2,594 bases of DNA from Dictyostelium discoideum (GCA_000004695.1 CH709149.1:1-2594); one strand, 5' to 3'. Counted from the first letter of the stretch, positions 1-2,148 are shown. The notes: generated by a model from the sequence alone, not told the origin. Made by a program: numbers and translations.

Positions 1-420
1 TTCTTCCTTAATTTTATTTAAAAACGATTCATTGCATTGGAAATTATCATATTTACGAGATAAGAAATCAGCTATAAAATTCTTTTTACCACTTATATGT
101 CTTAATTCATAATCAAATTCTTTAATATATTTCATATAATTATCTTGTCTCTTTGTGTACGTTTTATCGTTTGACTTATTGATAATATATGTAAGATTTT
201 GGTGATCAGTGTAGATTGAAACCTTTTTACCAATTAATAAATGTTGAAACTTCTTTAGAGAATCAATGATTGAAAGGAACTCTCTATCACCTATGCTGTA
301 CCTCTTTTGAGTGTCAGTAAGTTTTCTACTGTGGAGCCAAATGACTTTGAATTTATCACCTTGAATTTGATATAATACACCTGATAATGCTTTATCACTA
401 ACATCACAATACAAGTGAAA
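1..420 (-). CDS. Partial pol polyprotein: RNase H domain plus the integrase N-terminal linker. It is truncated at both ends (N-terminal RT missing, C-terminus off the window).
   Basis: Same frame as above. Recognisable homology starts at 'FHLYCD' (codon covering 420-418). Codons further upstream (421-546) are read-through of the tRNA-flank repeat and are not part of pol. Confidence 0.75.
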
Positions 421-423
421 ACT
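1..423 (-). mobile_element. 5'-truncated Ty3/gypsy-type LTR retrotransposon fragment (Skipper/DGLT-A-like). It retains RNase H and the start of the integrase linker and continues past the left edge of the window.
   Basis: The minus-strand frame reading 438->1 has no stop (146 codons). It translates to ...FHLYCDVSDKALSGVLYQIQGDKFKVIWLHSRKLTDTQKRYSIGDREFLSIIDSLKKFQHLLIGKKVSIYTDHQNLTYII...RHISGKKNFIADFLSRKYDNFQ.... These are the three RNase H catalytic blocks (D in 'CDVSD', E in 'DREFLSII', D in 'YTDHQNL') followed by the canonical Ty3/gypsy 'GKxNxxADxLSR' motif that precedes the integrase. No RT-coding sequence lies upstream; composition changes abruptly at ~423/424. Confidence 0.8.
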
Positions 424-1737: not shown

Positions 1738-1978
1738 ACAAACCAAGCAGACCAAAATTCAACATTAAACAAAAAAAGATTAAAACGATCGAAGAAAATA
1801 TAGAGGAACACCTCAAAGATACTTTAAATAACTCATCAGAAACAATATCAACAAAGAGAAAATACCAGGAGGAGCCAAATCAAGAGAATGATCTCGAACA
1901 AATATCCACAATTATGAACAACAATTTACAAAAGATTAATAAAAACTTATCAATCTCACTAACTAATGAACACAAGTA
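1668..1978 (+). CDS. Likely continuation (C-terminal part) of ORF1 in frame 3, reached by a -1/+2 shift within the Pro-codon tract.
   Basis: Frame 3 is open from 1668 to the TAA at 1976-1978 (…PPPPPPQLNKPSRPKFNIKQKKIKTIEENIEEHLKDTLNNSSETISTKRKYQEEPNQENDLEQISTIMNNNLQKINKNLSISLTNEHK*). It overlaps the frame-1 ORF by 70 nt and has no ATG until 1912. Confidence 0.35.
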
Positions 1979-2148
1979 AGATAGCAATATGGAACGCCCA
2001 AGGACACAGCAAAGAAAAATGCACCTTTAAAGCCAATTTAAAGCAAATACAATTTAAATTTGCTTTAAATTGTGTAAAAGTCACTCACACTAATCTTCAA
2101 TCCATTGTCACATTTGTTCAATCTTTAATCAAACAGTCCAATCTTTAA
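1966..2148 (+). pseudogene. ORF2 remnant: the N-terminal 60 codons of an apurinic/apyrimidinic-endonuclease-like (APE) domain, after which the rest of ORF2 is deleted or decayed.
   Basis: MNTSKIAIWNAQGHSKEKCTFKANLKQIQFKFALNCVKVTHTNLQS...* The WN-x-x-G motif and a '..C.K.THtNL' block at the same spacing (~27 aa) as L1-type 'NINGL ... CIQETHL' support an APE start. The catalytic Glu position is Val. A stop follows at 2146-2148, and the remainder of the window is AT-rich non-coding. Confidence 0.45.

Follow-up and report, generated by a model that had tools for sequence, protein, structure and literature searches.

The retrotransposon Skipper was reportedly described by Leng et al. in 1998. Dd_Skipper-1 is a Ty3/gypsy element described with a chromodomain, and has an LTR of 390 bp, as compared with 208 bp in Dd_Skipper-2 (formerly DGLT-P) and 265 bp in DGLT-A (PMC5006619). 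About 60 copies of Skipper-1 are recorded, 2 of them full length and 58 not; 10 of the copies are solo LTRs (PMC5006619). The element shows no targeting of, or preference for, tRNA genes (Table 1 and text of PMC5006619). Its copies are concentrated in centromeric clusters rich in DIRS, where, in the published wording, "most elements are highly fragmented". Copies of Skipper-2 lie 8-23 bp downstream of tRNA genes and those of DGLT-A 13-33 bp upstream (PMC5006619). Published rules exist for two non-LTR retrotransposon families. TRE5, in which ORF1 is followed by an APE-RT ORF2, lies upstream of a tRNA gene at 44-54 bp and is oppositely oriented to it; TRE3 lies 40-150 bp downstream in the same orientation, keyed to the B box or the external B (ex-B) box. 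An ex-B box is present in approximately 80% of the tRNA genes of D. discoideum. Supplementary Fig. S2B of Spaller et al. 2016 (PMC5006619) prints, as text, the RNase H core of every dictyostelid LTR element.

The window analysed here is a stretch of 2,594 nt of D. discoideum DNA, A/T-rich throughout (16-38% G+C), the features of which are listed in Table 1. Its protein matches all lead to D. discoideum. It holds no host gene; three transposon pieces are nested around a defunct tRNA gene. Segment 1-426 is an inactive, 5′-truncated piece of Skipper-1, probably joined to the downstream flank of the decayed tRNA gene by a rearrangement that did not involve integrase, inside this transposon nest.

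Table 1 Sequence features of the 2,594-nt window, with positions counted from its first nucleotide
Feature	Position	Strand	Description and basis
Dd_Skipper-1 pol fragment	1-426	minus	Complete RNase H (DEDD intact) and 17-aa linker towards integrase; open frame exits left window edge; ORF, Pfam and Ty3 alignment
Distal 57-nt unit of tRNA-flank tandem repeat	425-481	minus	Perfect ex-B box GGTTCGATTCC at 463-473
Proximal 57-nt unit	482-538	minus	3′ part of tRNA relic (variable loop, T arm, acceptor 3′ strand), T6 terminator at 503-508, trailer
Decayed 73-nt tRNA-like relic	509-581	minus	A-box-like TAGCTCATATGG and B box with one mismatch kept; cloverleaf stems broken
TRE5-type non-LTR retrotransposon, ORF2-deleted derivative	629-2072	plus	Homologs P0025-27, loci L003-L006
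Complete 3′ LTR of second Skipper-1 piece	2073-2461	minus	389 bp, TG...CA ends; aligned to L002 and L007 LTRs and to L006 391-bp solo LTR
Polypurine tract	2462-2479	minus	AAAGAAGGAAGGGGAAGG, immediately upstream of LTR
Skipper-1 pol C-terminus	2505-2594	minus	29 codons and stop (NTSSDDDELDLSLQIKTTRSGRKVTPKRL, then stop); matches L002 element, protein P0024; exits right window edge

In order to characterise the left-hand fragment, its reading frame was translated and compared with profiles and structures. The reverse complement of 1-423 reads as 141 codons without a stop (SFHLYCDVSDK...GKKNFIADFLSRKYDNFQCNESFLNKIKEE), with 8-27 stops in each of the remaining five frames, and a fully open frame, counting any frame, arose in 2 of 20,000 shuffles of the segment. 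The fragment covers positions 6-105 of the 105 in the Pfam profile RT_RNaseH (PF17917, score cut-off 24.8 bits), scoring 90.9 bits (E=6.8e-26), and the closest solved structures, the Ty3 RT/RNase H entries 4OL8 and 7Q5B, were matched at E ~5e-12 (phmmer against the PDB). Alignment to these chains places D7 (in YCDVS), E50 (GDREF), D74 (YTDHQ) and D118 (IADFLSR) of the 141-aa fragment at the four D-E-D-D carboxylates; the position of D74 is occupied by N (rtNh) in 4OL8 and by D (rtDh) in the otherwise identical Ty3 chain 7Q5B. The motif GKxNxxADxLSR is found in the fragment as GKKNFIADFLSR. Yeast Ty3 has the same domain and the same four catalytic carboxylates over 123 aligned residues, but is distant in sequence (~30% identity) and, unlike the piece in the window, is itself complete, active and tRNA-targeted. 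The preliminary description of the locus, which reported the RNase H catalytic blocks and the GKxNxxADxLSR motif, assigned them to a gypsy-type (Ty3/Metaviridae) RNase H with a linker towards integrase, and expected the ORF to go past position 1, is borne out on each of these points by the Pfam match, by the alignment of all four DEDD residues to Ty3, by the identity to Skipper-1 given below and by a frame that is still open at window position 1; in intact relatives an integrase zinc finger follows shortly after the sequence that matches this position. In an intact element the role of RNase H in reverse transcription is to digest the RNA strand of the RNA:DNA hybrid, by means of the D-E-D-D metal-binding site. 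The copy in the window still encodes that site but has no RT, gag or promoter-bearing 5′ LTR, and is therefore unable to work as a transposon.

Comparison with the printed rows of Fig. S2B (PMC5006619) showed that the fragment is identical to the Dd_Skipper-1 RNH row at 109/123 positions (88.6%, with OCR errors in the printed rows scored as mismatches), as against 35% identity to the Dd_Skipper-2 row and 36% to a DGLT-A row. The alignment to DGLT-A and Skipper pol that had been proposed earlier thus assigns the fragment to Skipper-1. DNA identity to many D. discoideum paralogs is 90-95%, the nearest of them (locus L007) differing from the fragment by ~5%, and these paralogs show the domain order PR-RT-RH-IN, extended by an SH3-like (GPY/F) domain and then a chromodomain-like tail. 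One degenerate element at locus L002 joins the LTR seen at the right of the window and this RNase H with RT, an H2C2 zinc finger, an integrase core and a chromodomain-like tail, and it is from this single element that the link between the 389-bp LTR and the RNase H family is drawn. In the same degenerate copy the 5′ LTR end (...TTTTACAG) is followed directly by polypyrimidine TTTTTTTTATTTT, in place of a tRNA primer-binding site. The length of the LTR in the window (389 bp versus 390 bp published), its TG...CA ends, the polypurine tract and the pol C-terminus likewise agree with Skipper-1. Many fragmentary copies cluster with DIRS-like sequences: the transposon clusters at the paralog loci L001, L002, L007, L008 and L010 contain tyrosine-recombinase or RT genes of DIRS type but lack a tRNA. 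Two differences from the described element stand beside these likenesses. The chromodomain lacks Pfam confirmation in the relatives examined, where the motif YEVE..I......YL.KF..YPEPEW...D..C.EL was recognised by eye in L002 and P0174 with no Pfam Chromo match at E<=0.01; and the window copy has nothing 5′ of RNase H and abuts a tRNA-gene flank, despite the lack of a tRNA preference in Skipper-1.

DGLT-A and then Skipper-2 had been considered as the source family, on account of the degenerate copies, the ~6.2-kb L002 element and the position downstream of a tRNA, and both were ruled out by the 389-bp LTR and the published alignment. A DIRS-type retroelement, which the preliminary description had named as the finding that would speak against a gypsy-type one, was also rejected, as the fragment belongs with Skipper-1, and H2C2 zinc-finger and rve integrase domains are present in the paralogs of that element. 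The D. discoideum matches in the first protein search with the fragment were all short pieces. The sister species D. firmibasis has an apparently intact Skipper-1-like pol of 1224 aa (P0174, P0175) with the order PR-RT-RH-IN-SH3-like and 70% identity over the fragment. The window breakpoint falls at residue ~539 of this D. firmibasis pol, so that at most the 3′ 2.5 kb of the 7.0-kb element is present. Such a truncated copy is the norm and no anomaly, because 58 of the ~60 copies of Skipper-1 fall short of full length and the elements in centromeres are described as highly fragmented; the earlier view that the truncation is unusual does not hold. The tRNA-associated integration that was implied in the preliminary description falls with the family assignment: since the element is Skipper-1, which is without tRNA targeting (PMC5006619), its proximity to a tRNA is not a targeting event of the DGLT-A or Skipper-2 type, and its position beside the relic says nothing about tRNA targeting by LTR elements. 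The adjacency reflects transposon nesting and rearrangement, with no targeted integration.

The exact end of the fragment was located by alignment with its paralogs. DNA homology to paralogous copies ends at 424-429 and the codons GGT AGT (Gly-Ser) at 421-426 still fit the family consensus ...NNGSFHLYCD, which places the breakpoint between 426 and 427. Paralogous D. discoideum copies go on upstream as ...IPIDIEKVKASTDMPIHSDNNNLNNGSFHLYCD. At the DNA level, read-through of the form ...AATCTAAACAAT/GGTAGTTTTCAC (the slash marking the breakpoint) was seen in 8/10 copies, with ...CTTCTGAAAAG/GGTAGTTTTCAC in the window; the 23-mer that spans the window junction is CTTCTGAAAAGGGTAGTTTTCAC. The GG at 425-426 is common to both junction partners and makes a 2-nt overlap. 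An abrupt start of homology next to a tRNA-flank repeat had been noted before, and the abruptness was confirmed, whereas the position moves three bases further, from between 423 and 424. The truncation is flush with the ex-B repeat, as had been claimed, the end of repeat unit 425-481 coinciding with the breakpoint within 2 nt, and neither RT, protease, gag nor LTR lies in between: 427-640 had no match to any Skipper sequence in all fetched loci. On the minus strand of 427-516 a further 31 codons of open Skipper frame precede the junction; they cross the ex-B unit and reach back to an ATG within the tRNA relic (MQHFLNGTSGKGGLRFDSHIKHSIRGTSEKGSFHLY...), and this extension is probably due to chance in a locally G+C-richer stretch.

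The neighbour on the other side of the breakpoint, which had been taken for a Pol III gene, is a decayed relic. No tRNA was found in it by ARAGORN at default and relaxed thresholds, nor by Rfam at E<=1 and E<=10, where the only matches were at chance level (snoU2_19, Plastid-ycf2). Its MFE fold is not a cloverleaf (z=-0.12), and by eye the stem pairs left are ~3/7 in the acceptor, 2/4 in the D-stem and 3/5 in the anticodon-stem. Against the B-box consensus, the internal B box at 520-530 has 1 mismatch and the ex-B box has none, with 0.04 such perfect matches expected by chance; the ex-B box lies 57 nt beyond the internal B box (minus strand 530-520 versus 473-463). The two 57-nt units of the direct repeat, 425-481 and 482-538, are 77% identical (13/57 positions differ). 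Because this similarity extends beyond the B box, the ex-B box here is attributed to a tandem duplication of the tRNA 3′ half together with its trailer, and segment 425-538 shows one way in which ex-B boxes can originate. The 23% difference between the units also supplies a rough clock: as the Skipper piece differs from L007 by only ~5% and its frame is still open, the flank duplication is older than the junction.

Upstream of the relic the TRE5-type element begins at ~629, which is 47-48 nt upstream of relic nucleotide 1 (581) and in the opposite orientation (head-to-head), in agreement with the published TRE5 rule. A full-length relative at L006 has its 5′ end 48-50 bp upstream of a tRNA-Lys(UUU) and carries ORF1 and an RVT_1 ORF2. 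A TRE5 in its canonical place, 48 bp away, speaks for former Pol III activity, and this geometry indicates that the relic was once a Pol III-bound tRNA gene. The TRE5 copy in the window is itself degenerate. Its ORF1 (937 to ~1965) has frameshifts and an internal deletion of ~190 bp, and its ORF2 is cut down to the first ~13 codons (1966-2003), which run directly into the beginning of the 3′ region (2003-2072). The ORF2 junction was compared at window 1966-2072, L003/L004 1218-1256 and L006 15130-15200. The short-read contigs L003 and L004, from other D. discoideum runs, cross the deletion junction and match window 1995-2033 at 100%, to the contig ends, and by analogy with TRE5-A.2 this shared deletion suggests a propagated non-autonomous subfamily. 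TRE5-B is the suspected subfamily, given the length of the element and its low copy number; the supplement of PMC5006619 prints no sequence for TRE5-B. The 5′ module of ~175 bp is tandemly duplicated (~629-803 and 804-905, with 639-667 and 814-842 exactly the same), and its second copy ends in a 35-nt A-run (868-903).

At 2072/2073 the TRE5 element is cut by the LTR of the second Skipper-1 piece. The open frame at 2505-2594 was also considered as the 3′ end of a cellular gene and was rejected as such, being the Skipper-1 pol C-terminus by its match to L002. Inside the LTR, 2266-2390 is an A/T-only imperfect palindrome with arms of 42 nt (2288-2329 and 2337-2378) that are 83% complementary. A Skipper-1 LTR inside a TRE5-type element was also seen elsewhere: L006:10766-11148 is a solo Skipper-1 LTR of 391 bp that shares 95% identity with the LTR in L007 and interrupts ORF1 of an otherwise near-complete TRE5-type element, the one 48-50 bp upstream of tRNA-Lys(UUU). 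The L006 gene model spans the position of this solo LTR and has a product ~467 nt shorter than the genomic span.

What each piece is, where the breakpoint lies, that the junction has no LTR and how the parts rank in age are shown by the sequence itself, whereas the mechanism that joined the fragment to the tRNA flank, and any choice between deletion and duplication, are inferred. In the likely order of events, a once-active tRNA gene received TRE5 at the canonical site 48 bp upstream, Skipper-1 then inserted into TRE5, and the whole locus has decayed since. Integrase did not make the junction, since integrase joins LTR ends and the junction lies in the middle of pol with no LTR end; no target-site duplication is visible, the 3′ end of the fragment being outside the window. 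It is instead a flush scar with a 2-nt GG overlap, probably left by non-homologous or microhomology-mediated joining. Two routes would lead there. A deletion may have taken away the 5′ ~4.4 kb of a Skipper-1 copy that had landed near the locus, or a segmental (tandem) duplication of ~4.1 kb may have had its ends at the ex-B flank (427) and at the RNase H start of the right-hand Skipper-1 copy. The two Skipper-1 pieces of the window are in the same orientation, and duplication of the segment from 427 to the RNase H start of the right-hand copy would give exactly the observed junction between RNase H and the ex-B flank. Deletion, tandem duplication and cDNA capture would nevertheless give the same picture within the window. 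The age difference between flank duplication and junction disfavours a single event that made both. For the same reason, a deletion mediated by the duplicated flank, as suggested in the preliminary description, is unlikely: the units differ by 23% versus ~5% for the Skipper piece, and the overlap at the junction is just 2 nt.

Two coincidences are not predicted by purely random rearrangement and count against the explanation preferred here. One is the end of the 57-nt unit within 2 nt of the breakpoint. The other is a 128-bp Skipper-1 scrap in another strain (GCA_054859355.1, JBTAPG010000009.1; L008:9570), which begins at the same nucleotide next to an unrelated flank (...ATTGAAGGT/GGTAGTTTTCAC). 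A search for copies sharing the breakpoint had been advised, and this was the one found in the loci examined, where eight others read through. Common descent of the window and L008 junctions was considered and rejected, the similarity of their flanks not exceeding that of shuffled controls. About 55 Skipper fragments or fragment ends are present in the loci examined, and given that number the chance of a same-site coincidence within +/-2 nt is, by a rough estimate, 5-10%. A mundane cause of the recurrence may lie in the sequence GGTAG, the only G-rich island in an A/T-rich stretch, which would make a favoured microhomology anchor. It is unlikely, by our reckoning, that Skipper-1 has a preferred internal end at the first nucleotides of RNase H (an RT stop, an internal RNA end or a fragile site), with partial copies inserted without integrase in a non-LTR manner, here at the TRE3-type zone downstream of a Pol III gene.

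Among the other origins that were weighed, retro-insertion accounts for several features of the junction and is, on balance, judged rather unlikely. An incomplete Skipper-1 cDNA would have been captured at a break, or a Skipper-1 RNA would have been reverse-transcribed in trans by a TRE3-type machine (target-primed) downstream of the tRNA gene. The fragment shares the orientation of the tRNA and starts on its downstream side, 82 nt beyond the relic 3′ end and 37 nt past the ex-B box, and thus fits the published TRE3 geometry in position and orientation. The TRE3 window is broad, however, so that position discriminates weakly, and the L008 fragment has no detectable tRNA beside it and lies in a scrambled region. 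L1 5′ junctions show microhomology, and non-LTR copies and processed pseudogenes are typically 5′-truncated. The truncation in the window, with its 2-nt microhomology, recalls these junctions, and the likeness to 5′-truncated LINE copies, processed pseudogenes and Ty1 cDNA capture at double-strand breaks extends to a place and orientation compatible with the TRE3 zone; it is a matter of resemblance only, and unlike in those copies the 3′ end is outside the window, and with it any poly(A) tail or target-site duplication. On retro-insertion one would expect, at the left end, an LTR truncated where it is polyadenylated and followed by an A-run, together with a second copy of ...CGGAACTTCTGAAAAG. 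The second fragment with the same start and an unrelated flank would be expected if an RNA or cDNA ended at a fixed point there or if RT met a strong stop, but intact copies have neither a polypurine tract nor an obvious structure ahead of the breakpoint, and the recurrence has its possible alternative in the GGTAG anchor.

A chimera of two repeat-rich reads, formed in assembly or cloning and absent from the organism, is very unlikely. The window consists of repeats throughout, its junction is flush, and by exact match 0/4 ORFs complete inside the window (112, 60, 159 and 42 aa) were found in a public gene-position index; such an absence, however, tells no more than that the index has no entry for this allele or gene call. 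Protein searches with the 29-aa C-terminal peptide and with a TRE ORF1 corrected for frameshifts gave paralogous loci (L002 and L003-L006) and no hit to the locus of the window. An overlap of 2 nt between two intact flanks is just as characteristic of a genuine rearrangement, and the TRE5-tRNA geometry on the other side is biologically coherent. Integration of a full-length tRNA-targeting gypsy element, DGLT-A or Skipper-2, by the tRNA gene with later loss of its 5′ part is exceedingly improbable. These elements share the Ty3/gypsy class with the fragment and have degenerate copies near tRNA genes, and the fragment does adjoin a tRNA relic on its downstream side, where D. discoideum Skipper-2 lands (PMC5006619). 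The RNase H identities (88.6% to Skipper-1 versus 35-36%) nonetheless refute this origin through the family assignment, and the piece lies 82 bp downstream with no LTR at the junction, whereas 8-23 bp downstream or 13-33 bp upstream and LTR-flanked junctions characterise the two elements. The rearrangement of a Skipper-1 piece inside the nest stays the preferred reading.

The fragment is an ordinary dead piece of a known family, of little importance beyond annotation; the literature already covers Skipper-1, TRE5, ex-B boxes and the fact that transposon nests in Dictyostelium are heavily fragmented. A useful correction to the annotation is that the "tRNA gene" is a pseudogene. Should the recurrent breakpoint prove non-random across the genome, a defined replication intermediate of Skipper-1 or its trans-mobilisation by TRE machinery could lie behind it, which would be of moderate interest to transposon biologists.

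Gene models of bacterial or organelle type were observed beside Skipper-1 fragments in two places, L009 (JBTAPG010000108.1, 24.8 kb) and L007:7000-7848. Pfam matches there include ribosomal S11, L2 and L16, aminoacyl-tRNA synthetase pieces, DAHP synthase, epimerase and RecX, and these models could be insertions of organelle or bacterial DNA or could reflect assembly contamination.
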